DNA of 64,000 nucleotides from an uncultured Candidatus Saccharibacteria bacterium (GTDB taxonomy: Bacteria; Patescibacteriota; Minisyncoccia; Phycocordibacterales; CAIRYW01): the NCBI GenBank assembly GCA_964446625.1, contig CAYUPH010000004.1, positions 7,838-71,837 of the forward strand, read 5' to 3'. This document shows positions 21,532-64,000 of this stretch, piece after piece. Under the pieces are notes generated by a model, which made no database searches, was not told the origin of the DNA, and worked only from the letters and a program-made list of their open reading frames with translations. Numbering within the stretch: the first letter of the stretch is position 1; each line of letters begins with the position of its first letter. The position numbers and the translations under genes are program-made.

Positions 21532-21538
21532 AAAAAGA

Positions 21539-22537
21539 TTATTTTCCAGAGATATATTTTTTGTTTAGGTAGAAAGTGAAGTATCCAACACCCATCACAA
21601 GAAAGCCTGCGAGAATAAGAGCGAGTGACCAATCTATTGAATTTAAAAAGTATTTTGATGTCACTTTAAATGTGTGGGCCACAAGAAACACAGCGCCTAC
21701 TGCAAGCATAGCTCTACTTCGTATAAAGATACTTCCATAAAATGCTGCAAATATAAATCCAATGAATACAATATCAAACAAACCTCCAATCGCTATTCCT
21801 CCTCCAAGAATTGCCGTAGCGCCTAACCCATTAAATATCTCTCTTAGGAGTGAGCTATTACTACCTCTCACTCGTGCCAAAAACACATTGTCAAACCAAA
21901 AGCCAAGAGCGAGATAAACCACGCCGAGGATAATTGCTGCATACTTATAAATATCGAAATCATAGAGAGATAAGTCTCCTACTTTTGCAACTGCCGCCGA
22001 GTAACTCCAAGTAAAAAATGCAGTAGCAATGAAAACCAAAATCTCTTTTCTGTTTACAAAAAGTGCAGTTGAGTACATAACTCCAATCATAAGTCCTGTA
22101 AGCATATGAACCACAGGAGTTATTTTGATTCCAATCTCATCAAAAAGAATGAAAGCTCCTATCGGTGCCAAAATTGCAGAAACCATAAACAGAACACTCG
22201 AAAGTGTGCTTTGCTCTTCATCTTTTACAAAGAGAGCGACAACATATGTTCCAAATGACACACCAAGGGTGACAGCTATTCTCCCAATAAAACCAATATA
22301 ATTCCAGTTTTCAGTAATCATCACAATTACTCCAAGAAGGGCAACGATTCCTCCGATAAGATAAAAGACTTTTGTAAATCGAGATGAAGTGTTTTCTTCT
22401 GGGAGCGAAGCGCTCGCACTTTGAACCTTTGGTGTGGGTAGGGTATTTTCACCAAGAGTCTCTAAGATTTCCCCTTTTGAAACTACACCTGCACTTAATT
22501 GGGATTTTAAAAAAGCTAGAGTTTGTTCTTTATCCAT
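21539..22537 (-). CDS. integral membrane protein, N-terminal soluble segment + ~8 TM helices, unknown function
   Basis: 332 aa, highly hydrophobic after residue ~70. Confidence 0.6.
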   Translation of the reverse strand: MDKEQTLAFLKSQLSAGVVSKGEILETLGENTLPTPKVQSASASLPEENTSSRFTKVFYLIGGIVALLGVIVMITENWNYIGFIGRIAVTLGVSFGTYVVALFVKDEEQSTLSSVLFMVSAILAPIGAFILFDEIGIKITPVVHMLTGLMIGVMYSTALFVNRKEILVFIATAFFTWSYSAAVAKVGDLSLYDFDIYKYAAIILGVVYLALGFWFDNVFLARVRGSNSSLLREIFNGLGATAILGGGIAIGGLFDIVFIGFIFAAFYGSIFIRSRAMLAVGAVFLVAHTFKVTSKYFLNSIDWSLALILAGFLVMGVGYFTFYLNKKYISGK

Positions 22538-22543
22538 ATAATT

Positions 22544-23092
22544 TTATTTTACCCAACCAACTAGTCTAAAGTTACCGTAGTATGAATACCCATTCTCACC
22601 AACAATCCCTGGTAAATTCTTTTTTGCATTCCCTTTTGAAACCACATATCCATTTCTTCCGTTCGATCCGAAAATCTCAAAAATCCCATCATGGCTATAA
22701 TCATAAGTAACTACATACCCGTCTGGTGATGATGGTCCAGCATCATAAGAAAACTTTTGAGCATTCTCAAATGAAATTTCGTGAGAAGAATCTAGGTTTA
22801 CATCATAAAAATAAAGCTTTGGAATATCTCGCAGGGGAACAACATTGTCTCGAGGTGTAAGCGCCACTTTTACAATCTTTCCTTCTTTAACCTCGTAAGT
22901 ACTTTTGTACTCATTATTGTAAGCATAGTAATCAGTATTTTGAAAAACGTACACAAAGTTATGTGTAGGCTTTACAGAAAACGAAGGCAAAAGGACCGCA
23001 AGAGCTACCGCTCCTATAAAAATGAGAGGGAGCAAAATCGCAATAATAAGTGGCAAATGTTTGTTTTTCATAGTACAAACATTATACCACAT
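22544..23092 (-). CDS. membrane-anchored (N-terminal TM) extracytoplasmic protein, unknown
   Basis: 182 aa; single N-terminal TM (LPLIIAILLPLIFIGAVALAVLL), Tyr/Asn-rich ectodomain. Confidence 0.55.
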   Translation of the reverse strand: MWYNVCTMKNKHLPLIIAILLPLIFIGAVALAVLLPSFSVKPTHNFVYVFQNTDYYAYNNEYKSTYEVKEGKIVKVALTPRDNVVPLRDIPKLYFYDVNLDSSHEISFENAQKFSYDAGPSSPDGYVVTYDYSHDGIFEIFGSNGRNGYVVSKGNAKKNLPGIVGENGYSYYGNFRLVGWVK

Positions 23093-23140
23093 TAATAACC
23101 CTGAGTGCCTTCGACTTCGAAAATGTCTTTTGAGAGATAT

Positions 23141-23620
23141 TTATTCTCCCTTCCTTGCCGCATCAATTTTCGCAACATCAATTTTTTGCATCGTCATCAT
23201 TGCGTCGAACGCTCGCTTCGCTTCCTCCCCTCCAGCCACAAGCGCTTCAGTTAAAGTTTTTGGAGTTATTTGCCACGACACTCCCCACTTATCTTTGCAC
23301 CACCCGCATTCGCTTTCTTGTCCTCCATTTTGAACTATCGCATTCCAATACTTGTCAGTTTCCTCTTGGTCTTCTGTTGCAATCTGAAAAGAAAAAGCTT
23401 CAGTTTGCTTAAAAACGGGACCGCCGTTTAGTCCCATGCAAGGGATTCCACAGACTGTGAACTCAACCGTAAGAACATCTCCCTCTTTCCCTCCCGGAAA
23501 GTCGCTCGGTGCTTTAAAAACATTTATAAGTTTACTATTTGGAAAAGTAGCTTCGTAAAACTTCGCTGCCTCCTCCGCATCTTTTTCAAACCAAAGGCAA
23601 ATTGTATTTTTGTGTATCAT
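23141..23620 (-). CDS. PhnB-like / VOC superfamily protein (second paralog)
   Basis: 159 aa; ICLWFEKDAEEAAKFYEATF...ECGWCKDKWGVSWQITP; same family as 6325..6792. Confidence 0.7.
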   Translation of the reverse strand: MIHKNTICLWFEKDAEEAAKFYEATFPNSKLINVFKAPSDFPGGKEGDVLTVEFTVCGIPCMGLNGGPVFKQTEAFSFQIATEDQEETDKYWNAIVQNGGQESECGWCKDKWGVSWQITPKTLTEALVAGGEEAKRAFDAMMTMQKIDVAKIDAARKGE

Positions 23621-23679
23621 TTACCTATTGTAGCACAGGAAAGAAACCATTTTTAAAGCATGCACTCAAAAAATTAAAT

Positions 23680-24000
23680 TTATTTAACTTCGTACCCAAA
23701 TTCTTGAAGAACATTCATTAATTTTTTTCCACTAAATAAATTTCGAACTCGCACCATATCAATAGTTTGTTTATCTACACGATAATAAAATTCAACCCCT
23801 CGAAAGACTTTTTTTATTTCAGTAATATTTTCTTTCATTATTACAAACGAACCTCCTGGTAACAGAGTTCCTGGGCAAAAAAGTTTAATATACTCATTGC
23901 TAATCTCGATAGTAGCAAACGGCCAGCCTGATGAAACTAACACATTGGCACCATAAAAAGTAATCGAAGACGGACTAAATTGTATCAACTTTTTCTCCAT
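23680..24000 (-). CDS. hypothetical protein
   Basis: 106-aa ORF with no recognisable motif. Confidence 0.45.
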   Translation of the reverse strand: MEKKLIQFSPSSITFYGANVLVSSGWPFATIEISNEYIKLFCPGTLLPGGSFVIMKENITEIKKVFRGVEFYYRVDKQTIDMVRVRNLFSGKKLMNVLQEFGYEVK

Positions 24001-24039
24001 ATAATTATTATATCAAAATCGGTACAAATAACATGTTTT

Positions 24040-24741
24040 TTATATCTCCCCCTCCACCAACACAAGCAAATGGTCAGAGCCTTTCGAGCTACCCACCTCA
24101 AATGACATCCATTTTAAATCAGGGCTTACAAAAATATAATCAAGCTTTGTATCAATTTTTTGTGGTTTACAAACTGGACAGCCTTCGGGGTACACACTCC
24201 AAGTTGGAAGTCCTGCCACATCAGTATTAATATATTTTTCTTCCATCTTTGTAACTGGGTAGCTTCCTGGAACAGAATTAAAGTCCCCCATTACGATTCC
24301 TTTCTCTAATGGAAGAATTGTTGCTAAAGTATCCGCTTGCTCATTTTGAAGCGGAAGCGATTCTTGGTGTGTATGTTTCAAATGCACAGAAAAAACAGAG
24401 AGAACTTTTTCTCCAATTTGAATTTTTGCTTCCATAGCCCCTTTGCCTTTTCCCTCACGAAGCGGTCTCTCACTGGATTCTATAATCGGGTATTTACTAA
24501 ATATTCCTAGATTAAGCTTCACATGTTTTCCATTGTTATCTGTAAATTCAACATGAGGCATTACCACTCCTGCATACCCTTTGTTTTTCAAATATGTCAC
24601 GGTGTCTCGCGCAGGATCATTAACTACAATTTCTTGAAGAGCGATAATATCTGCGTCTGCCCCATCTAAAAACCTCACAACTTCACTAAAGTGACAGTCG
24701 TACCAAATATTCCATGATAATAGTTTGATTTTGTGTGGCAT
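24040..24741 (-). CDS. endonuclease/exonuclease/phosphatase (EEP) family protein
   Basis: 233 aa; KLLSWNIW...DADIIALQEI...VMGDFNS...SDHLLV: EEP catalytic landmarks. Confidence 0.8.
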   Translation of the reverse strand: MPHKIKLLSWNIWYDCHFSEVVRFLDGADADIIALQEIVVNDPARDTVTYLKNKGYAGVVMPHVEFTDNNGKHVKLNLGIFSKYPIIESSERPLREGKGKGAMEAKIQIGEKVLSVFSVHLKHTHQESLPLQNEQADTLATILPLEKGIVMGDFNSVPGSYPVTKMEEKYINTDVAGLPTWSVYPEGCPVCKPQKIDTKLDYIFVSPDLKWMSFEVGSSKGSDHLLVLVEGEI

Positions 24742-24750
24742 ACAGTTTGA

Positions 24751-25530
24751 TTAGTTTTGTTCTGGGTTAAATCCATAACACACCTGTATCTCTTCTTCGA
24801 GAGTGAAGTATGAACGATTCCCTAATTTTTGAGTCAGCACCCCTTTTACCTCACTCAAGAATTCTTTCTTGTCTTCTTCTGATAAAAGTTCATAAGTACC
24901 CGATGTGGTCTGAAGACCGACCCGCTCTTCTACTGTTGTGTTAAAAATTATTGGTATTCTTTCTGTTGAAACTTTTTCCAAACCGTTTTTATAAAAGAAG
25001 TTTGATATATATGTGAGGTCCCTAAGCTCAGAAGGTACTTTTACCCAGTTATATTTTCTGTAAATACTTGCTGGAATCTCATCTTCTTCTGGTATATCTT
25101 TTGTTGTTAGTGTCCAAAAGACGAAAAGTAATCCACCTGGTCGCAATACCCTTTTAATTTCAGATATCGCCCTCTCATTTACAAAAAAGTGAAAAGCGGT
25201 TCCGACAGTAACCACATCAAAATGACTGTCTGGAAACTGCAGATTTTCTACATCTGAAACTATGTAATCAATACTCAATTTTTTAAGCTGCGCCTGTTTC
25301 TTTGCCTCCTCAATCATGAGTGGATCATGGTCAGTGCCGGTTACTTTTAAACCAGTTTCCACTAAAGGTTCAGTAGACTTGCCTGTGCCGCAAGCTATAT
25401 CAAGGATACTGTTACTGCCTTTTGGGATTTGTTTTACCAACACATCAAAAAGCGCTTTGGGATAAGGCAGTCTGTATTTTGTATAGTTTGTTGCTTGGGA
25501 GCCAAACATTTTTTTGAATCTATCGAGCAT
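24751..25530 (-). CDS. class I SAM-dependent methyltransferase
   Basis: 259 aa; motif I ILDIACGTGKSTE, motif post-I ...VTGTDHD. Confidence 0.8.
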   Translation of the reverse strand: MLDRFKKMFGSQATNYTKYRLPYPKALFDVLVKQIPKGSNSILDIACGTGKSTEPLVETGLKVTGTDHDPLMIEEAKKQAQLKKLSIDYIVSDVENLQFPDSHFDVVTVGTAFHFFVNERAISEIKRVLRPGGLLFVFWTLTTKDIPEEDEIPASIYRKYNWVKVPSELRDLTYISNFFYKNGLEKVSTERIPIIFNTTVEERVGLQTTSGTYELLSEEDKKEFLSEVKGVLTQKLGNRSYFTLEEEIQVCYGFNPEQN

Positions 25531-25614
25531 TTTTATTTTAAAATTCTTTTATGTGAGGGTATTATAGCAGGAAATTAAGAAGAGGGTTTTCTTTATTCGA
25601 TTTAGAAATTAAAT

Positions 25615-25652
25615 ATTAAAAAAACTCCGGGAGGCATTACCCTCCAGGAGTC
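25615..25652 (-). terminator. rho-independent terminator of the PurM-like gene
   Basis: minus-sense: cgactcctggaggg-taatg-cctcccggagttttttt, 22 nt after the stop at 25674. Confidence 0.6.
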
Positions 25653-25673
25653 GTTCGGAAACAAGGAACTTTA

Positions 25674-26777
25674 TCATCGAACCGCCAGTGTCTCACCGGC
25701 ATATTCGATACCCTTCGGCCTGATCACGACTTTCTTGTCGCCGGCTTCGATGTGTCCGGCAACGAACGCTCGCAGACCGAGTTTCTTGGCGACGTCAATC
25801 ACTTGAGTTGCTTGAGCTTCGGTCACGTAGAGTGCAAACCCTGCACCCATGTTGAGGTTACCGTAGGCTTCAGTGTCATCGACCGGTCCATGCTGTTGCA
25901 GGAAGTCGAAGATCGGGAGCTGCTTCGGAAGCGTCTCGATGATATAGCTCCACGGATGCGTTGACCGCATAAGCTTGCGCCAGCCATGGCCGGTGACGTT
26001 CACCGCGTAGTGGATGTCCACTCCTGCGTTGATACAGTCTTCGACGAGGCCGACGTAGATGTGGGTCGGATCGAGAAGCGTTTCGCCATAGCTTCGGCCG
26101 TCGGAGAGTTTCGTGAGATACCCTTTCGGCAGCCCATCAGCAATCTTTCGCGCCAATGTGAGCCCATTAGCATGAATGCCAGAACTCTCGATAATGACAA
26201 TTGCGTCGCCGTGCTGAATTGGACCAGCAATGAGACGCTCCTTAGGTTCGACGATTCCCATCGCTGAACCAGAGAGAACAACCGTTCCCGGAATTACGAT
26301 ACCCCTTAGGGTCGGCGTTTCGCCTCCGCCCCAGGTGCAGCGTGCCAGATTGCATGCGTTCCCCCAACCCGTGACGAGGTCGCCCGTGCGGTTCGTGTCA
26401 TTGAACCAATCTGAAGTGCCACCTGCGACATGCATCGCCACTGACAGTGGCAGGGCTCCAACTGTAACCATGTCGTTAACAATCATCGCGACAGTGTCTT
26501 GTGCAATCTGATTGTAATACGACCTACCAGTCAGATCATACATTGCGTCCGCAACCAGGTTCTTAGTTCCGAGTCCTTCCTCGACATGAGCGAGGAAACC
26601 CCAGGGAGTTTCGATCAAGTAGGCACTTTCACCCCTCGATGGTGCGAATTCACAGAAGTCTCCACCGCCAAGGCGATTAATGTTTCCCGCAGTTCCCCGC
26701 GCAGCTTCCTGCGCTGCTACTTTGAAGGGGTCCATGGCACTGTAATTGACGCCAGTGCCTGCATAGGTCATTTTCAT
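25674..26777 (-). CDS. AIR-synthase-related (PurM-like) protein; compositionally foreign (GC ~55% vs ~38% background)
   Basis: 367 aa; PurM-like N- and C-domain organisation (…GGLGTKNLVADAMYD…IVNDMVTVGALPL…GGETPTL…VVLSGSAMGIV… HANGLTLARKI…VTGHGW…). Nucleotide composition is visibly GC-rich relative to both flanking genes. Confidence 0.75.
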   Translation of the reverse strand: MKMTYAGTGVNYSAMDPFKVAAQEAARGTAGNINRLGGGDFCEFAPSRGESAYLIETPWGFLAHVEEGLGTKNLVADAMYDLTGRSYYNQIAQDTVAMIVNDMVTVGALPLSVAMHVAGGTSDWFNDTNRTGDLVTGWGNACNLARCTWGGGETPTLRGIVIPGTVVLSGSAMGIVEPKERLIAGPIQHGDAIVIIESSGIHANGLTLARKIADGLPKGYLTKLSDGRSYGETLLDPTHIYVGLVEDCINAGVDIHYAVNVTGHGWRKLMRSTHPWSYIIETLPKQLPIFDFLQQHGPVDDTEAYGNLNMGAGFALYVTEAQATQVIDVAKKLGLRAFVAGHIEAGDKKVVIRPKGIEYAGETLAVR

Positions 26778-26960
26778 GATTGTTTTTCAAGTGAGCACAT
26801 TAAGCCGTGCTTTTGGCTCGCTGAAGATTTCAGCTCTATGGCAAGATTATTAGAAAATGGAGAATATTGCAACTAAATCATTGTAGATACTCACTAAAAA
26901 ATATTATTCCTTTTGTTTACGAGTAAATTGATAGAAAAAAGAAAATGACTTAGTATAAAT

Positions 26961-27743
26961 TTATTTTACTTTCAGCACATAGGTCTGTGCCATTGGTTCA
27001 ATATCATAATATCTTGCATGAGTCTCCTTATACTTATCGGAAACAGGTCTACAATCTTCAATTGTTTCAATCTCAAAATATTTATTAATAGTTTCTTTTA
27101 AAAATTCAGAGGTTTTATAGTAGTGGTAGAAAGTTCCATATTCTCCATTTTTCCCGTGATGGAATTCGTACCGCTCCCCGTTAGTCATATCCCTCCCAAC
27201 TTTTTTCAATTCGTATTTTGGGTTCAATGTTGTAAAGATATAATACGAGCCAGGTTTAAGGATTTTAGAAACATATGCCATATGTGCTGTGAAGTCTTCA
27301 AGAGACAAGTGCATCAGAAAGTTCCTCGATACACATAAATCCACTGACTGATTATCAAAGAGACCAAAATCTTTATCAATATGAGACTGTACAGAAGCAA
27401 TATTTTTAGGATTTCCTATATCATGAAAATAACGATTAGACTGATCAACAAGCTCCTCAGAACCCTCGACCCCAATATACAAAAGCGTATTGAAACGAGC
27501 ATGGTCAACATTGAAATTATTTTGAAATGCTGGTACGGAAGCTTTGTGCCCAAATAAAATCTGGATGCCCATAAGGTTAGTACCGCAACCAAAATCTACA
27601 ACTATTGATTTAGGGTGCTGGGAGAGAAAATTGAGTATGTGGGAATAAAGAGAGGGATTAATTACATAATCTAAACCAACATTACCTGCCTGCTCTAATT
27701 TTTCCCATAAACTCTCCCAATTCGTTTTTCCGTATTCATGCAT
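26961..27743 (-). CDS. class I SAM-dependent methyltransferase
   Basis: 260 aa; VVDFGCGTNLMG motif I. Confidence 0.7.
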   Translation of the reverse strand: MHEYGKTNWESLWEKLEQAGNVGLDYVINPSLYSHILNFLSQHPKSIVVDFGCGTNLMGIQILFGHKASVPAFQNNFNVDHARFNTLLYIGVEGSEELVDQSNRYFHDIGNPKNIASVQSHIDKDFGLFDNQSVDLCVSRNFLMHLSLEDFTAHMAYVSKILKPGSYYIFTTLNPKYELKKVGRDMTNGERYEFHHGKNGEYGTFYHYYKTSEFLKETINKYFEIETIEDCRPVSDKYKETHARYYDIEPMAQTYVLKVK

Positions 27744-27745
27744 AA

Positions 27746-28204
27746 TTATTTCTTTTCAGGGAGAAGATTCCACAACATATCAAACATGTCGATAAACACA
27801 TCAACAAGTACCGGGCTTTCAATCACTAACCCTAGCACAGTCTGATGAGGATTCATTATTAAGATCTTATCGTCTAAAATATCAATACTGCTCTTAAATT
27901 CATACGTATCAGGAACAGTCTTTACTTGACGATGTGGCAATGAAGCAACTTCGTACTTAAGACCATTTTCTTTAAAAATAACTTGTGTATCAACTGAGGC
28001 ATCATTCAATTTTTTTCTGAACTCTTGTAGAAATTCAGGGTTCACTGGAAGCCAATCCTCTATACTTGCGATTGCACGCCACTTTTTATATTTACCTACA
28101 TTCGAATTATAAAAACTTTCTAACTGATCTGATGTATTTAGTATCGAAATACCTTTCGACTCTTTCGAAGCTTGGTCGATAAGATTTTGTATTTGTTTAT
28201 CCAT
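27746..28204 (-). CDS. hypothetical protein
   Basis: 152 aa; 2-nt gap to the preceding methyltransferase gene (operon). Confidence 0.5.
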   Translation of the reverse strand: MDKQIQNLIDQASKESKGISILNTSDQLESFYNSNVGKYKKWRAIASIEDWLPVNPEFLQEFRKKLNDASVDTQVIFKENGLKYEVASLPHRQVKTVPDTYEFKSSIDILDDKILIMNPHQTVLGLVIESPVLVDVFIDMFDMLWNLLPEKK

Positions 28205-28371
28205 ATTCTTACATTCTAGCGTATTTATCGAATACCATATAATATTCCCAGCATCCTTTAATACTTTTCTAAATTACTGGTGTCTTTGAGCAAGAGCTGT
28301 TGTCGGTTAAGACTCTGCTTAGTTGATCTTGCTTTGTTTCGATTTACCAAAACAGTGCGCCTCGCCTGGAA

Positions 28372-28884
28372 TTACTTTACATAATTCGTCTCCAAATCCA
28401 TCTCTGTTTTCAATTCCAAAGCACGTTGCATAATATGATCCCCGATTTCTCCCCAGTCAAAATACTTCTTGTAGTCTTTAGGATCAATCAATTCAATCTT
28501 AGTCACGTCACCATCAGGATCATTTATAAAAGGACCATATGGTTCGACGATACATACCGACCGAGTCTGCGATACAACCCCTTTTGACTCAGTTATATCC
28601 TGACAACCAATGAAACGCTGTTTGAGTACATTCATATTTGTCTCCTCTTTCACTTCGCGCCGTACAGCCGTCCGAACGTCTTCACCCTCTTCTACTCCTC
28701 CGCCAGGCGGAGACCAATACCCTTTTGCATCCGAATATACCAAAACGAGCTTTTCTCCATGAAAACAATATGCATGAACTCCTTGGATTTTCTTCTTACC
28801 CCAATCACGCTCACTATTTATATCGTTATAGATAACAGGGAGTATTTCACCGGACCTATTTGTGAGGGTTGATTTAATTTCCAT
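28372..28884 (-). CDS. NUDIX hydrolase
   Basis: 170 aa; Nudix box GGGVEEGEDVRTAVRREVKEETNM (GX5EX7REUXEEXGU). Confidence 0.85.
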   Translation of the reverse strand: MEIKSTLTNRSGEILPVIYNDINSERDWGKKKIQGVHAYCFHGEKLVLVYSDAKGYWSPPGGGVEEGEDVRTAVRREVKEETNMNVLKQRFIGCQDITESKGVVSQTRSVCIVEPYGPFINDPDGDVTKIELIDPKDYKKYFDWGEIGDHIMQRALELKTEMDLETNYVK

Positions 28885-28941
28885 TAATTATAATTATATC
28901 ACTTTGGTAACTTTACTAAGTGCTGAGTCTTGAGTATATGT

Positions 28942-29265
28942 TTAGTCTCTGTTTTCAAAATGAAAAAGAGGATCCATACGTTCAACTAACTCCAAACTAC
29001 TTTCTCGCGCTTTCTTGTGATCTACGTCTATTGGATGAGGAGTTTCTGTGACAGCTTTTCGAGCCTTCTCAAAATCTTCAGCTTCCATGAAGTAAAAGAC
29101 CTCTAGACCATCATTTGAAATAAAACAGGACTCAGATACAACACCTTCATTTTTGAGAGTAGCAACAACTTCTTCCTTTCTACGTTTCAACTCCTCTGAC
29201 CAATCGAGCCAGATTTGTTTTGCATTAGGTTTAAATTGGAATTTAACTAATTTAACATTTGTCAT
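28942..29265 (-). CDS. hypothetical protein
   Basis: 107-aa ORF. Confidence 0.45.
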   Translation of the reverse strand: MTNVKLVKFQFKPNAKQIWLDWSEELKRRKEEVVATLKNEGVVSESCFISNDGLEVFYFMEAEDFEKARKAVTETPHPIDVDHKKARESSLELVERMDPLFHFENRD

Positions 29266-29349
29266 ATCTTTATTGTAACGTATTTCATGTGCAATATCCT
29301 AGTAGGGATTTGCTGCGGGTAAGGAAACAATTTTTAGTTGCATAGATTC

Positions 29350-30318
29350 TCATAACGTTGCGTCTGAATATCTTCCCTTATGCATATACTCATTCAAATC
29401 TAAAAGCTTAACGTTTTTACCGTGAACATTTAGAAAAATATTACCTTTTTGGTCAGTATGGCTATTACTTACAATAACTTTAGACTCTTCTTGTTCATCA
29501 ATGATTTGAGTAACAACAGCTCCTCCTATTCCCCCTTTCAAGTCATTACTAAATATCTTCCACCAAATATCTCCTATTAACTTTCCTTGGTCTTTATATC
29601 CATGTGTTTGGACATCGAATTCAAGAAGAGAAATAAGATCTTCAGAAATATCGTTCTTTGTTAATGTGTAGCACCCTGCTGAAACATATTGGCCCCATTC
29701 TGCCACTTTTACTGTTATTCCTTTTTTTGTGTCTACTCTTAATAAAAAAATATGTGAGTCCGCAACATTTAAAGTGTTTCTGCTATTTTCTATACACTCT
29801 TGTATTGGCCTAGGTATAGATAAGTTTTCACAAAAAGACTTTTTTTCTGGATTCTCTAATTCAACTTTTTTTATTAAAATCTGAACATATCTATCCAACG
29901 TGAGTTTTAATTTTGTTAAATTAATTATCTTTTTCTTTCTATTATTAGTCATACCTCCGAATATGAAATCCCCCACTCTATGAGTGTTTTTTGGATCTAA
30001 AAACCACTCATTGACAACATCTTTTGAAAAAAGCTCAATTTGATCTCTTAAAATTAGAATATCTGAACTAAGGATATTTGACTTAATGGCATACTTAACT
30101 TTTTGTGTAAAAAAATTCGCAAAATCAACTCTTCCTGCAACCGCAACAGCAATGGAATTTCCATCAGGCGCCAATCCTCGTTGCCCTATACCAGGACCAT
30201 GAATATTAACAATCTTTTTTACATCATCTCTGAACGTATTGGTAGAGGAAAAAGTAACTCTTGTATCAGAGATAAGGTAAAGTCTATTACTTAAGTTTAA
30301 TCCTGCAATAAGTGTCAC
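29350..30318 (-). CDS. hypothetical protein (322 aa); N-terminus MTLIAGLNLSNRLYLISDTRVT weakly reminiscent of Ntn-hydrolase/proteasome-beta-like starts
   Basis: Long ORF adjacent to tRNA-Gln; no firm motif. Confidence 0.5.
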   Translation of the reverse strand: MTLIAGLNLSNRLYLISDTRVTFSSTNTFRDDVKKIVNIHGPGIGQRGLAPDGNSIAVAVAGRVDFANFFTQKVKYAIKSNILSSDILILRDQIELFSKDVVNEWFLDPKNTHRVGDFIFGGMTNNRKKKIINLTKLKLTLDRYVQILIKKVELENPEKKSFCENLSIPRPIQECIENSRNTLNVADSHIFLLRVDTKKGITVKVAEWGQYVSAGCYTLTKNDISEDLISLLEFDVQTHGYKDQGKLIGDIWWKIFSNDLKGGIGGAVVTQIIDEQEESKVIVSNSHTDQKGNIFLNVHGKNVKLLDLNEYMHKGRYSDATL

Positions 30319-30503
30319 TTCAGTTAAATTTAATTTTTATTATCTAATTACGTAATATAATATAACCAAAAACAATTCTAGGTACAAGGATTTTAATACT
30401 TAACTCGAAGATTACCCCTACATTATATTAAGTACATAGAAAAATAAATTTTGATTTTTTTTATTAAAAAAGGTATCTTTAAAGACACAATTAAATATAG
30501 TAT

Positions 30504-30574
30504 TGCGGGTTCGTCTAATGGTAGGACACAGCACTCTGGATGCTGGTATTGGGGTTCGAGTCCCTGACCCGCAG
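30504..30574 (+). tRNA. tRNA-Gln (anticodon CUG)
   Basis: Hand-folded cloverleaf: acceptor TGCGGGT/ACCCGCA (U1:A72 as in bacterial tRNA-Gln), D-stem GTCT/GGAC, anticodon stem CAGCA/TGCTG, loop CT-CTG-GA, 4-nt variable, T-stem TGGGG/CCCTG with TTCGAGT loop, discriminator G; no encoded CCA. Confidence 0.8.
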
Positions 30575-30646
30575 CAAACACAACTTATTGAACAAATCTA
30601 GCTTTTATTGCCTAGACTGTTTTAATGTGGTACTCTTTCGCGAGTT

Positions 30647-41906: not shown

Positions 41907-42524
41907 ATGAAAAAGTTCCTCAGCGCTTTGCGCAAACTGGGCCCATTCCTTATGGGCGTTATTCTCGGAGTGGACATGGGCATTGGCCTCATCGTCTTCT
42001 GGGTCTTTGGTGTCATCACCAAGGACGTAAGCATCACCAATCTGCTGTTTTGCGTCTTCATGGCGCATGCACCTGATGCAGATATGCTCCTATACATGGT
42101 TCCGCCCATAAGGAGAACATTATCCCTTCCAAGTCACCGAGTGATAGGGCACCACCCTGTGCTCATAATTCCCTTCTTCGTCATCCTTGGGATGTGGGTT
42201 ACAACCATGTTCCCAATAGAGAAGTGGGTTCTTCAGGGGATCATTCTCCTGGTCACCCACTTCATACACGACATGACAAACCGGAGCGGACTTCATCTTC
42301 TGTCTCCGTTCGATTGGACGAGATGGAGATTAAGTTCGCGAGGAATTCATGTTGTGACTGAAGAGGAACTAGATGAAGAATTCGGCGATGGCACAAAGTA
42401 TGGACAAGGAGGAGTGAGTGAGTTTGAGAACCGCACTGAGCCTTTATCCATCACTGGTGTCGCACTGGTGCTCACTGGTATCACCGGCACCCTCTTCTCG
42501 TTCCTTATCTTCCAGCACCACTGA
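41907..42524 (+). CDS. membrane-bound metal-dependent hydrolase, YdjM/DUF457-like; GC-elevated (~50%)
   Basis: 205 aa; multiple TM helices with His/Asp clusters (HAPDAD, HRVIGHHP, HFIHD); isolated plus-strand gene inside a minus-strand block; possible promoter TTGACT-17-TTTTAT at 41869..41897. Confidence 0.5.
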   Translation: MKKFLSALRKLGPFLMGVILGVDMGIGLIVFWVFGVITKDVSITNLLFCVFMAHAPDADMLLYMVPPIRRTLSLPSHRVIGHHPVLIIPFFVILGMWVTTMFPIEKWVLQGIILLVTHFIHDMTNRSGLHLLSPFDWTRWRLSSRGIHVVTEEELDEEFGDGTKYGQGGVSEFENRTEPLSITGVALVLTGITGTLFSFLIFQHH

Positions 42525-59800: not shown

Positions 59801-60010
59801 ACTCGGGTATGGTACCCACACTTCCAAGCAACATAAGGGTATTTTAGCGCGTTTTCCTAAAAGGATTTAGGGTTTGTGGGTCGGGGTCACTTTTTTGAGA
59901 ATGACACACTGGTCTGGACTTCTCGCCGTTTCCGTTCTCTGTTATCGGTTTCCCCAAATGCCAACAAATGCCAATTTTCGTGACGTAATTTTTTTAGATA
60001 TAATAGGAGC

Positions 60011-60724
60011 ATGACAGTCGGCGAATTGATATACCAACAAATGAAGGATGGGTACATTCCCACAGCCCCACTCTCGGATGGGTTTATTTCGGCTGTGACG
60101 AGGAGCGCCGAGGAATCCCAGAAACTCGTAGAGACGATGCGGATACCGATGGAGAATATGCAGAGGACGCTTGAAAGAATACGCCCAAGCCTTGAGGCGA
60201 TGAATAACATAATCCCGAGGAGCCTAGCAATAGCCCCATCATTTATTCCTTCCCTATACGAAGAGGAGGACGAAGATCTCATCATCCCCGCACTCAATGG
60301 ATCGGTTCAGGAGTATGTCGTGGAGGATGCGGATGTCACCCCAGCAAGGGTTGAGCGAGCGATTTCCTCCTACCTTCTTCCTGGCAACGCCCAGTGGGGT
60401 TCGCTCATGTTTCATTTTCTCGATGGACACACTGTCCGTGTCTCGCACCCAGACATGCCCACAAAGAAATTCACCTATACGGAAATGGGTTTTGTGAACG
60501 AGAAAACGATGCTACCGGACAGAAAATGGGAAATGCTTCGAGCGATTGCTGATCGCGGCGGCTCACTCACCAAAGACAGCTGGGATTATCGCTTCCACCG
60601 CAACATAAAGTACGAACTCAACGAGGGTCTCAAGCGATTCTTCGGCATGACCGAGAACCCAATTCCTCGATACACTCGTCGGGACGGATACATGACACTC
60701 TTTGTCATTCGCGGAGACCGATAG
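60011..60724 (+). CDS. hypothetical protein, first gene of the GC-rich island
   Basis: 237 aa; preceded by TATAAT and AGGAG RBS 6 nt upstream; tandem 10-mers AAATGCCAAC/AAATGCCAAT at 59956..59975 upstream. Confidence 0.6.
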   Translation: MTVGELIYQQMKDGYIPTAPLSDGFISAVTRSAEESQKLVETMRIPMENMQRTLERIRPSLEAMNNIIPRSLAIAPSFIPSLYEEEDEDLIIPALNGSVQEYVVEDADVTPARVERAISSYLLPGNAQWGSLMFHFLDGHTVRVSHPDMPTKKFTYTEMGFVNEKTMLPDRKWEMLRAIADRGGSLTKDSWDYRFHRNIKYELNEGLKRFFGMTENPIPRYTRRDGYMTLFVIRGDR

Positions 60725-60901
60725 TCATCCTAGAAAAAATGACGATGCAAAAGACCTTTCACCGCTTTGGTAAAAGGTCTTTTGTTTGAGCGCTGATTTT
60801 GTCATTCATCGTCATTCGTGCGCGGGAAATTGTCATTTCATCATCGGATGACGAATAGGGGTAGAAGAGCATTACTAAGACCCTCTTCTGAAATTAACCC
60901 C

Positions 60902-62197
60902 ATGGCAAAAGAAAAGATCATATGGTCGCCCGCCACTCGCAAGCTCGGCGACCTGATCAAGAACGGATACAATCCGCGAAAGTTAAGCGAGAACGAACGC
61001 AGGGACTTGGAGAAGTCCGTGCAGGAATTCGGCACGGTCGTCCCGATTGTCCTCAATATCGGCACAAGAGCCAACACCATCATCGGCGGCGAACAGCGCG
61101 TGAAGGTGTATGCAGACCTCGGCATCGAGGAGATCGAGTGTATGGTGCCGTCGAGAGAGCTGTCGCTCGAGGAGGAGCGCGAACTCAACCTTCGCCTCAA
61201 TAAGAATACTGGCTCGTGGGATGAGGAACTCCTCAAGGACTTCGACATGAACGTGCTTCTTGATGTCGGCTTCGGCGACGAAGAGCTTCAGAATCTCTTT
61301 GATGACGTTGACGTGGTCGACGACGACTTTGATGTCGAGAAGGCACTCAAGGAGACGATCACTCCTAAAGTTAAGACTGGTGAGATCTGGGAACTCGGTA
61401 AGCACCGATTGTTTGTCGGTGACTCGACCGATGGCGAGTTGGTACAGAAGCTCATGGCTGGCGACCTCGCCGACATCGTGTACTGCGACCCGCCATACAA
61501 CATCGGACTCGACTACTCAAAAGGTGTCGGCAACAAAGAAAAGTACCAAGGATCGTACTCCGGCAAGGATGACTCGAAGAAGGACAGCGAATACATGGAC
61601 TTCCTCAACAAGAGCATGGAAGTGGCGAAGAGCGTCTCGAAGAAAGATGCCCACCTCTTCTACTGGTGCGACTCCTCATACATCGGGATGGTGCAGAGTC
61701 TGTACGCCAAGCACAAGGTGAACGCGAAGCGCGTCTGCCTATGGCTCAAGAATAATCAGAACCCCACCCCGAAGATTGCCTTCAACAAGATGTACGAGCC
61801 GTGCGTGTACGGAACGATCGGCAAGCCGTACCTGAACACCGGCATGAACAACGCCAACGAAATCCTCAATCAGGAGGTCACCACCGGCAATCAGGTGCAT
61901 GACGAGATATTCGACATGATCGACATCTGGATCGAGAAGCGCGACAACGCCAAGGACTACCGCCATCCAACGCAGAAGCCCGTGACCCTGAACGAGAAGC
62001 CGTTCAAGCGATGCAGTGCGCCGCTCCACATTATCTTCAGCGGATTTGCCGGAAGCGGAAGTGACCTCATTGCGGCAGAGGAACTTGGTCGTGTGTGGCG
62101 TGGGGTCGAGAAGGATCTCATCTTCGCAACCATCGTGATCGACCGATGGGAGAAGTTTACCAACCTAAAGGCCAAGAAAATCCATGAAAGCAACTAA
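60902..62197 (+). CDS. ParB/Srx-like nuclease-domain - DNA methyltransferase (N6_N4_Mtase, beta-class) fusion protein
   Basis: N-terminus KIIWSPATRKLGDLIKNGYNPRKLSENERRDLEKSVQEFGTVVPIVLN = ParB N-domain; motif IV CDPPYNIG; motif I IFSGFAGSGSDLIAAEELGR near C-terminus. Alternative upstream starts (GTG 60818, ATG 60848) exist. Confidence 0.8.
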   Translation: MAKEKIIWSPATRKLGDLIKNGYNPRKLSENERRDLEKSVQEFGTVVPIVLNIGTRANTIIGGEQRVKVYADLGIEEIECMVPSRELSLEEERELNLRLNKNTGSWDEELLKDFDMNVLLDVGFGDEELQNLFDDVDVVDDDFDVEKALKETITPKVKTGEIWELGKHRLFVGDSTDGELVQKLMAGDLADIVYCDPPYNIGLDYSKGVGNKEKYQGSYSGKDDSKKDSEYMDFLNKSMEVAKSVSKKDAHLFYWCDSSYIGMVQSLYAKHKVNAKRVCLWLKNNQNPTPKIAFNKMYEPCVYGTIGKPYLNTGMNNANEILNQEVTTGNQVHDEIFDMIDIWIEKRDNAKDYRHPTQKPVTLNEKPFKRCSAPLHIIFSGFAGSGSDLIAAEELGRVWRGVEKDLIFATIVIDRWEKFTNLKAKKIHESN

Positions 62198-62933
62198 GGG
62201 AGAAATCTTCAAAGTCGGCGACCACATCATCGCTTGCGGCGACTCGCTCGACAAAGCATTTGTCGGCAAGGTCATCGGCAAGCACAAGGTGCGGGCAGTC
62301 GTCACCGACCCGCCCTACGGAGTCGCCTATGTCGAGAACAAGCAGGGGCTGGTGAAAATCAGTACGGACGAGACGAAAGCTATCGCAAACGATCATCTTC
62401 AGAGCGAGGAGGAATACGAGGACTTCACGCGCGGGTATCTTGGCGCGGTCATTCCGTATCTCACGGAATATAACGCCGTCTACATCTTCAATGCCGACCC
62501 AATGTTCCCAAGCCTTCGCTCAGGCATGAAAGCCGCAGGCTTCTACTACAGCCAGATGATTATCTGGATCAAGAACCAGCCCGTGATGAGCCGCAAGGAT
62601 TACCTCTCCATGTATGAACTCATCGCATATGGCTGGTTCGGCAAGCACAAGATGGAGCGGTCGAAGGCGCGGAATGTCATCTACCATCCTCGCCCTACCA
62701 AATCGAAACTGCATCCGACACAGAAGCCGGTCGGTTTGTTGCGGAAGCTCATCCCGAACTCCACGAAGGTCGGCGACATTGTGTATGACCCCTTCCTCGG
62801 AAGCGGTTCAACCGCCGTTGCGTGTGAGCACTTAGGTCGAAAGTGCATCGGCATCGAGCTTGATTCGGCGTATGTCGAAAGCGCGATCAAGCGTCTTGAA
62901 AAACTCACCGGCGAAAAGGCGGTGAAGGTATGA
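62184..62933 (+). CDS. DNA methyltransferase (beta-class N4-C/N6-A, DPPY family)
   Basis: 249 aa; motif IV VVTDPPYGV, motif I YDPFLGSGSTAVACEHLGRKCIGIELD; overlaps the upstream gene by 14 nt. Confidence 0.85.
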   Translation: MKATKGEIFKVGDHIIACGDSLDKAFVGKVIGKHKVRAVVTDPPYGVAYVENKQGLVKISTDETKAIANDHLQSEEEYEDFTRGYLGAVIPYLTEYNAVYIFNADPMFPSLRSGMKAAGFYYSQMIIWIKNQPVMSRKDYLSMYELIAYGWFGKHKMERSKARNVIYHPRPTKSKLHPTQKPVGLLRKLIPNSTKVGDIVYDPFLGSGSTAVACEHLGRKCIGIELDSAYVESAIKRLEKLTGEKAVKV

Positions 62934-62937
62934 GTGT

Positions 62938-63312
62938 ATGCAGGGAGATGACTTTTCCAAGGATCCGTACAAAAAGCAGGTCTACGAAACCTACGCTCTT
63001 TGGAAGTCCCTCCCTTCATTTCTCAAGGGACAGCCGAGAGTCGCGCTTGAGAAGTTCGGGATTGAAGAGGAAACGATGTTCGAGTTGTTGGCGATAAAGA
63101 CACAGCTCGACTTCTCACGAAAGTACGAGGTCGATACCGGCACGCTCTCTGACTGGAACAAGCGTCTTGAAAAAGACGGACTGGTCAAAGACTTGAACGC
63201 ATGGGCGCGCAAGCTCACGCCAAACGTCATGTTCGCCCTCTATAAGAACATCATCAAGAGCGGTCGAGCGCATGAAGTACGAGCATGGTTTGAGATCGTA
63301 GAGAATTACTAA
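62938..63312 (+). CDS. hypothetical protein (island)
   Basis: 124-aa ORF, 4 nt after preceding stop. Confidence 0.5.
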   Translation: MQGDDFSKDPYKKQVYETYALWKSLPSFLKGQPRVALEKFGIEEETMFELLAIKTQLDFSRKYEVDTGTLSDWNKRLEKDGLVKDLNAWARKLTPNVMFALYKNIIKSGRAHEVRAWFEIVENY

Positions 63313-63313
63313 T

Positions 63314-63508
63314 ATGGAAACGATTAAACTAGAAGAGATTAATACCATTCTCTCCGACACTCTCCGCAAGGTGGTGTCGCGGGAGATATCGCTCAAGCAG
63401 GCATCCATGATCGCCAAGCTTGCCTCGGCATTGTCGCGCAACATTGCCAACACCGAGCTGAAGGAACGGGTCGAGTTCCTCGAGAGTGTGCTCCAAAAGA
63501 CGAGATAA
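63314..63508 (+). CDS. small hypothetical protein (island)
   Basis: 64-aa ORF starting 1 nt after preceding stop. Confidence 0.45.
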   Translation: METIKLEEINTILSDTLRKVVSREISLKQASMIAKLASALSRNIANTELKERVEFLESVLQKTR

Positions 63509-63513
63509 CCTAT

Positions 63514-64000
63514 ATGAGAAACCTCAGCAACATCATCAAGCGTTCCAACCTCACCCCGTTCGAGCGGGTGGCGACATTGGTGCGTCACAACACTCATAAG
63601 CAGAAGACCGGCAAGGATTTGCTGACTGAAGCTCAGCTCCACAACCTCACTCAAGGATGGTCAGCCCAGAGAGGAGAAGCGAACGAGTACAACCGGTATC
63701 TTGAGATCGCTCGCTTAGAGAATTCAATGAGCATTGATGCGACGACTTTCTCGTATAAGTCTGAGCTGTCCGTAGTGCGCCAGCAGCGGGTACTCGCGTA
63801 CAGTCTTGAGAACATAAAGAAAGACAAGAAGTTCCATATTGAGATGATGATGGAGGGACTGACCGAGGAGGAGTGCCTCCGGTTTGCGCTCGCTCATACA
63901 TACCTTGATTACCGAGACACGCTTCATTTCTTCACGTTCGAGAACTTGCCGCTTGAAGTGCGGCAGGACTTGGCGCTTCTCGATGACTCGGTTGGTTTCA
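63514..64000 (+). CDS. hypothetical protein, 3'-partial (continues past window end)
   Basis: ATG 63514; open through position 64000 (MRNLSNIIKRSNLTPFERVATLVRHNTHKQKTGKDLLTEAQL...). Confidence 0.55.
   Translation, partial: MRNLSNIIKRSNLTPFERVATLVRHNTHKQKTGKDLLTEAQLHNLTQGWSAQRGEANEYNRYLEIARLENSMSIDATTFSYKSELSVVRQQRVLAYSLENIKKDKKFHIEMMMEGLTEEECLRFALAHTYLDYRDTLHFFTFENLPLEVRQDLALLDDSVGF

Follow-up and report, generated by a model that had tools for sequence, protein, structure and literature searches.

How did a single GC-rich gene of the PurM family come to lie in AT-rich Patescibacteria DNA, and what could its product do there? The gene in question, hereafter purM, is found on the 64-kb stretch of contig CAYUPH010000004.1 analysed here (referred to as the window, i.e. 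the whole stretch at its full length). A first-pass annotation made from the letters of the sequence had proposed that it was acquired horizontally as a single gene ending with its own terminator, and that its product was more likely a HypE-, SelD-, ThiL-like or maturation enzyme than a purine enzyme. It had also suggested comparing codon usage with the neighbouring genes and looking for the gene in related genomes. Both comparisons were made and agree with the acquisition, while the assignment outside purine synthesis found no support. The gene is probably a genuine purM of a subfamily typical of Patescibacteria or Candidate Phyla Radiation (CPR) bacteria, brought into an AT-rich Paceibacteria-like genome by horizontal transfer as a unit of about 1.25 kb. 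Loci and proteins compared with the window are cited below by their labels (L and P numbers).

Composition, codon usage and genomic position of purM

The purM open reading frame (ORF) has a GC content of 0.549, close to the 55% of the first-pass annotation, and a GC content at third codon positions (GC3) of 0.587. GC3 amounts to 0.310 ± 0.048 (standard deviation; maximum 0.401) in the 58 host-like genes of the window, which places purM at z = 5.8, and no other housekeeping gene of the window exceeds 0.40. The distance to the host pool in synonymous codon usage is 0.315 for purM versus 0.141 ± 0.034 (maximum 0.218) for the host genes (z = 5.2). The codons CTC/CTG, ATC, TTC, GAC, CCG and GGC are favoured by purM where the host favours CTT, ATT, TTT, GAT, CCA and GGA. 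The change is sharp at both edges of the gene: measured over 80 nt, the GC content steps from 0.28-0.38 to 0.54 near position 25640 and is again 0.40 or less near 26800. Both neighbouring genes code for class I S-adenosylmethionine (SAM) methyltransferases according to Pfam and are host-like, as had been supposed, with GC3 values of 0.33 and 0.32. The same order of methyltransferase, purM and methyltransferase, with a 99.7-100% identical protein, was found in four assemblies from different samples (ERZ27282915, ERZ22308622, SRR6837583 and ERZ27283041). Because the identical order recurs in assemblies of other samples, the arrangement is no assembly artefact. In this species, purM is fixed. The ratio of nonsynonymous to synonymous substitution rates (dN/dS) of purM is about 0.1 against every relative compared.

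The gene lies in an island of about 9 kb with about 12 accessory genes, of which it is the only GC-rich one; the others include genes for a DUF6176 protein, a NUDIX protein, two methyltransferases, an EEP nuclease/phosphatase and a PF06983 protein. The gene order DUF5069-RF1-ftsE-ftsX-pyrG is common to the window and to the related loci L054 (PyrG 76% identical, GC content 0.39) and L055 (74%, GC content 0.38), and the order RF1-ftsE-ftsX-pyrG is kept in L046 (PyrG 63% identical). None of these three syntenic loci has a purM within 10 kb, and each of them carries different genes past pyrG. In L054, about 3 kb of unrelated genes occupy the place of the 9-kb island, and the gene content of the island differs in every relative examined.

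Divergence of purM and boundaries of the putative transferred unit

The contig that carries purM in L008 also carries pyrG (P0286, L053), so that both genes could be compared between the window and one other genome. In this pair, amino-acid identity is 72% for PyrG, whose proportion of synonymous differences is saturated (pS 0.79), versus 84% for purM, with a pS of 0.55 and a synonymous divergence (dS) of about 1.0. Of the third positions at conserved residues, a fraction of 0.60 is identical in purM and of 0.45 in PyrG. The gene is compositionally foreign in L008 too, where its GC3 is 0.60 in a host with a GC3 of 0.19. Over 22 loci, the GC3 of purM remains at 0.585 ± 0.076 while that of the hosts spans 0.19-0.68. 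The slope of gene GC3 on host GC3 is accordingly shallow for purM (0.34 over the 22 loci), versus about 1.05 for PyrG (three genomes).

Homology among purM copies stops about 55-65 nt past the stop codon, just beyond the terminator, and 70-95 nt before the ATG, and these limits are the same with or without purN and purL present. As these limits coincide with those of the transcription unit, the whole of it, about 1.25 kb, would have moved. Lone purM copies occur in unrelated contexts in L006, L007, L008, L012, L013 and L024, and in a neighbour-joining tree, which carries no support values, lone and clustered copies intermix.

The grounds for a transfer are thus the foreign composition and codon usage, the boundaries of the unit, its absence in syntenic relatives and a synonymous age younger than that of pyrG. 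There is good support for a single-gene transfer of purM together with its own terminator. The donor would be a GC-richer Patescibacterium, from which purM would have come as a self-contained transcription unit made of promoter and leader, ORF, 3' untranslated region (UTR) and intrinsic terminator. This unit would then have been inserted in the variable accessory island that immediately follows pyrG and tRNA-Gln, and recombination within this flexible, tRNA-adjacent island is the simplest guess for the insertion. Two vectors were considered and rejected. A transposon origin is unsupported as there are no notable flanking repeats, and a phage vector finds no counterpart in any viral contig or phage record with this PurM subfamily, phage purM being only about 30% identical.

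A probable Patescibacteria-type AIR synthetase

The window PurM contains the domains AIRS (PF00586, 34 bits for a cut-off of 24) and AIRS_C (PF02769, 47 bits for a cut-off of 23.1), in line with the PurM-family fold recognised at first reading. Its only strong family match in NCBIfam is the purM model TIGR00878, with 171.3 bits over model positions 53-331 of 332. The ThiL model TIGR01379 reaches 26.4 bits for a cut-off of 184, and no HypE or SelD model of NCBIfam was matched at E ≤ 0.01. All 20 matches of a PDB sequence search are named PurM or AIR synthase (5-aminoimidazole ribonucleotide synthase; one of them 'putative'), with a best E-value of 9.7e-32 and an alignment of residues 4-357 for 9jzy, and no HypE, SelD or ThiL chain is among these 20. 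A protein database search returned more than 100 clusters 73-84% identical to the window PurM. The homologues with a named source belong to Patescibacteria (Taylorbacteria, Kaiserbacteria, Paceibacterota), and since the close homologues are all from Patescibacteria or Paceibacteria, the reduced host genome presumed earlier is supported. In an exhaustive search of 50%-identity representatives, the 150 matches listed are mostly full-length and 41-71% identical, the named members of this wider subfamily being Magasanikbacteria and Gottesmanbacteria. A structure predicted from 23 close homologues, with only 73-100% identical sequences aligned, had a mean pLDDT (predicted local distance difference test) of 47 and was unusable.

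Outside Patescibacteria, a 50%-identical member of the subfamily with host-like composition is present in a Planctomycetota metagenome-assembled genome (MAG) with a GC content of 0.72 (contigs L018, L040, L041), in a context that is uninformative. The canonical PurM motifs DGVGTK and HITGGG are kept by a homologue with 30% identity in the Isosphaeraceae MAG L021.

Canonical bacterial PurM, exemplified by E. coli PurM (PDB 1CLI) and by the product of the Bacillus-type purEKBCSQLFMNHD operon, has the same two-domain architecture of the PurM superfamily. Full-length alignments with the window PurM have E-values of 1e-27 to 1e-31 at an identity of only about 31%. The motifs DX4GAXP (ATP), G(V/L)GTK, SSGxH(S/A)NG and GGET are common to both. 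Among the AIRS motifs described earlier, i.e. G2 (GVGTK), M1 (DX4GAXP) and the glycine-rich G1 loop (PMC2978367), G2 is present in the window protein as GLGTK at residues 68-72 and M1 as D102-MVTV-GALP, and the equivalent of G1 is LGGGDF at residues 36-41, glycine-rich but divergent. Further differences from the canonical protein are insertions after GTK and before SDWF. Three hallmarks set the subfamily apart. Glu replaces Asp in the xGxGTK motif in all 104 representatives in which the motif was detected; (N/H)xTGHG stands where canonical PurM has HxTGGG, the window clade showing N(V/I)TGHGW for HITGGG with a four-residue deletion; and the C-terminus is extended by about 20 residues (KKVVIxPKxxxFAGxTLAVR).

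The residues proposed for the active site of E. coli PurM are Asp65, Asp94, His190 and His247 (PMC3261824). In the window PurM, Asp94 and His190 are conserved as D102 and H202, His247 is replaced by Asn (N260) and Asp65 by Glu (E67), both replacements being clade-wide. The correspondence of E67, D102, H202 and N260 to the E. coli numbering was established with what we take to be the E. coli PurM sequence, and it agrees with all four published positions. Archaeal-type sequences are among the best-scoring PDB matches of the window PurM. The H247N replacement recurs in Thermoplasma, Picrophilus and Caldivirga, purine-synthesising organisms in which the protein concerned is considered the one PurM present; unlike the window clade, which has Glu, these archaeal proteins keep Asp65 (PMC3261824).

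The genomic surroundings of the orthologues point to purine synthesis. They divergently adjoin purN and a single-chain purL of 1276 residues in L001, L004, L010 and L032, they adjoin purL in L009, L011, L014 and L034 and purN in L016, and purB is near in L004 and in L017 (two genes apart in the latter). The purM genes of these loci belong to the same orthologous group as the window gene, with 77-82% identity. Fused proteins with the hallmarks of the subfamily combine PurM with PurD in two cases (P0500 and P0442, the latter from a Gottesmanbacteria contig of 1.1 Mb) and with PurC in one (P0400). Another protein, P0485, looks like a join of PurM to a C-terminal portion of PurL and may be a gene-calling artefact.

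In the window itself, which belongs to a 195,847-bp contig of a larger genome, tblastn searches matched purM alone, as the first reading had it: no PurE, K, B, C, S, Q, L, F, N, H, D or PurO homologue turned up in the 64 kb. The queries were the complete pur operon of Bacillaceae (L019, L020), the PurL, PurN and PurB of Patescibacteria and the PurO of L049. Three candidates were set aside. A marginal match is the glutaminase domain of PyrG and no purine enzyme, a weak PurF-like match at 57.4 kb is a ComF-type phosphoribosyltransferase beside pilus genes, and the GC-rich stretch at 60-64 kb, a conceivable home of the missing pur genes, turned out to encode DNA methylases of a mobile element. 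Related genomes have their purine genes dispersed, as exemplified by a solitary purO among unrelated genes in L049. According to one survey, a complete de novo pathway to inosine monophosphate (IMP) is present in 32% of CPR MAGs (PMC11608272), so that finding purM in a genome of this kind is unremarkable. Judging from sequence comparison, the window gene is most probably a Patescibacteria-type purM, whose product would act as AIR synthetase (EC 6.3.3.1) in this host, forming AIR from formylglycinamidine ribonucleotide at the expense of ATP, and most likely serve de novo purine synthesis, with the other pur genes scattered elsewhere in the genome.

Alternative explanations

Several observations weigh against a transferred purM that serves purine synthesis. 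The protein stays under the equivalog cut-off of TIGR00878 (171.3 versus 236.35 bits), one of its proposed active-site residues, Asp65, is Glu throughout the clade, and no second gene of the pathway accompanies it in the window. There is no integrase, transposase or recombinase among the neighbours, and neither direct nor inverted repeats of any note border the gene. No sampled relative comes closer than 84% identity (dS about 0.8-1.0), which implies that the donor is unsampled and that the transfer need not be very recent. The contrast in dS between purM and PyrG comes from a single genome pair. Finally, in 20 of the 22 loci, GC-rich hosts included, purM surpasses the host median in GC3, and a small GC bias intrinsic to the gene may therefore add to the signal. 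This last point could be taken to its end by assuming that purM was inherited vertically and owes its high GC content to gene-specific constraint, such as amino-acid composition or codon selection in a conserved or highly expressed gene. The lack of mobility genes and target-site repeats would fit, and so would the strong conservation of the subfamily (73-84% over more than 100 clusters), which equals or exceeds that of PyrG (68-78%). Vertical inheritance is nevertheless strongly disfavoured and was given very little probability. GC3, which is not bound by the protein sequence, lies 0.28 over the host mean here and 0.41 over it in L008, while all other housekeeping genes of the window remain at 0.40 or below. 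Moreover, syntenic relatives have no purM at this site, synonymous sites are unsaturated in purM and saturated in pyrG for the same genome pair, and copies occur in unrelated contexts with homology limited to the transcription unit. An abrupt change of GC content over about 1.2 kb could also be produced by an assembly or binning chimera of the DNA of two organisms. This is barely conceivable given identical junctions in the four independent assemblies, both junctions being intergenic and placed exactly at the promoter region and at the terminator.

The remaining alternatives accept the foreign origin of the gene and concern its function. A PurM-fold enzyme acting outside purine synthesis or on its own (in HypE/SelD/ThiL-like maturation, in a cyclisation or on a host-cell intermediate) would explain why the gene is kept and exchanged singly, and it would agree with the lone occurrence of the gene here and in six or more further contexts, with the score under the purM equivalog cut-off, with D65E and H247N at proposed active-site positions, and with a promoter and leader in common with the MOSC-domain gene of L007. 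It is an unlikely reading in view of the family searches, in which TIGR00878 scored 171 bits and ThiL 26 for a cut-off of 184, HypE and SelD were not matched and the PDB matches were all PurM. The adjacency of the same orthologous group to purL, purN and purB and the fusions of the subfamily to PurD and PurC speak in the same direction. Lone and clustered copies are mixed in the tree and have a common promoter and terminator, which argues for one functional type. A related and quite improbable idea is that the purM unit is a stand-alone module, recurrently exchanged among ultra-small Patescibacteria and useful by itself in AT-rich recipients without the full pathway, where it would act on a host-cell intermediate or supply AIR, the leader shared with the MOSC gene of L007 then being a new purine-related cis-regulatory element. 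The gene might also be a relic that decays or has no function and is neutral to a host lacking the pathway, as would suit the absence of a further pathway gene in the window and of the Shine-Dalgarno stretch of about 21 nt that precedes the ATG in L007. Such decay is very improbable: the ORF is intact and full-length with a dN/dS of about 0.1, the promoter-like region and the terminator are kept, the protein is 99.7-100% identical across four assemblies of different samples, and Shine-Dalgarno sites are rare in this host.

The purM case is thus one of ordinary gene transfer with a small unexplained shared leader. It shows, with clean boundaries, that single transcription units of purine biosynthesis move between lineages of Patescibacteria. 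Transfer of single units helps to account for the patchy distribution of de novo nucleotide synthesis in these reduced, mostly host-dependent bacteria. It also calls for caution in the metabolic reconstruction of MAGs, as this purM subfamily falls under the standard equivalog threshold and may be of foreign origin where it is found.

Organisation of the transcription unit

The features of the locus are collected in Table 1.

Table 1. Coordinates of the purM transcription unit and of its insertion site in the window
Feature	Coordinates	Strand	Basis
purM ORF, 367 residues, predicted Patescibacteria-type AIR synthetase (formylglycinamidine ribonucleotide (FGAM) cyclo-ligase)	25674..26777	-	Domains, TIGR00878, PDB matches
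3' UTR with motif AAAGTTCCT at 25664..25672	25653..25673	-	Conservation
Intrinsic terminator	25616..25652	-	Hairpin 25623..25652 and T7 25616..25622
Promoter-like region and 5' leader of purM	26778..26879	-	Homology to L007; promoter by consensus alone
Flexible island of accessory genes, bounded by pyrG/tRNA-Gln and a conserved 107-residue gene	21532..30503	.	Relatives differ
tRNA-Gln at the island edge	30504..30575		

The dedicated terminator seen at first reading was confirmed. Its stem begins 22 nt past the purM stop codon and consists of 11 bp, GC-rich and with one mismatch, followed by U7. The corresponding 66-nt segment folds at -20.4 kcal/mol (z = -3.3), a stability reached by none of 200 shuffled sequences. 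Homologous hairpins lie downstream of purM in L007, L008, L010, L024, L025 and L029, loci to which the 3' UTR of the window is homologous as well. The motif AAAGTTCCT is located directly 3' of the stop codon and is kept in L001, L006, L008, L010 and L012. The gene that follows purM has its own TATAAT box about 30 nt ahead of its ATG. Rfam gave no match in either flank of purM, at gathering thresholds or at E ≤ 10.

Upstream of the gene, a putative -35 element TTGCAA (26867..26872) and a putative -10 element TAATCT (26844..26849) were recognised by consensus. The leader carries a small hairpin GCTGAA..TTCAGC and the motif AGCCAAAAGCACGGCTTAATGTGCT at 26794..26818, and an in-frame alternative start ATG lies at 26771. 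The upstream region of about 100-110 nt (26773..26879 at its longest) is homologous only to L007, where it occurs at 133-252, upstream of purM, and at 2130-2253, ahead of a MOSC-domain gene located two genes downstream of purM. The leader sequence is AGCCAWARGCACGGCTYARTGTGCT. Its core motif AGCCAAAAGCACGGCTCAATGTGCT could form a small pseudoknot (AGCC/GGCT and GCAC/GTGC), and the fold of the 5' leader is no better than that of shuffled sequences (z = -1.5 and -1.0). These three leader copies are the only unique ones in all the DNA searched, with none in viral contigs. Compared with L007 (217-253), the window (26778..26790) is without about 21 nt directly before the ATG, including the Shine-Dalgarno site. 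Such sites precede only 5 of 54 genes of the window host, so that their rarity makes this loss no defect. A TATAAT-like box lies no more than about 10-15 nt from the ATG in many host genes, an arrangement suggestive of leaderless mRNAs in this host.

In other purM copies, a conserved promoter-like element TTGCC-N17-TAATAT is found at the upstream limit of homology. The promoter element between purN and purM is present twice in L010 (8507-8521 and 9931-9945), about 1.4 kb apart, suggesting an insertion between the two genes with duplication of the promoter region.

Comparison with related systems

The closest known arrangement is the purN-purL/purM cluster of Patescibacteria (L001, L004, L010), whose purM belongs to the orthologous group of the window gene (77-82% identity) and, in L010, has a homologous 3' UTR and terminator. 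In contrast to these clusters, the window purM is detached from purN and purL, its host is much richer in AT and accommodates it in an accessory island, and its promoter and leader differ, being of the L007 type. The purM auxiliary metabolic genes of cyanophages and other phages, found in 201 phage records, are likewise single purine genes that move alone. They are of the canonical type, whereas the window gene belongs to the Patescibacteria subfamily and lies outside any prophage.

Other mobile or GC-rich segments of the window

The methyltransferase gene just downstream of purM (24751..25530, reverse strand) is itself mobile. Its homologue in L046 (10001-10771) is 80% identical, versus only 57-69% for the syntenic housekeeping genes of L046 and the window. 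The L046 copy is AT-rich (GC3 0.35) in a host with a GC3 of about 0.7-0.77, which indicates a transfer in the compositional direction opposite to that of purM.

A second and larger GC-rich block extends over about 60000..64000 and beyond (L056, L057), with a GC content of 0.49-0.54 and a GC3 of up to 0.73. It encodes a ParB-N6/N4 DNA methylase and another DNA methylase and, past the window, a reverse transcriptase and a large serine recombinase. In another strain, the block carries a P-type ATPase instead. The block looks like an integrated mobile element. Lastly, a YdjM-family gene of 205 residues (41907..42524, forward strand), with a GC content of 0.50 and a GC3 of 0.59, lies on the strand opposite to nearly all its neighbours and may be another single-gene GC-rich acquisition.

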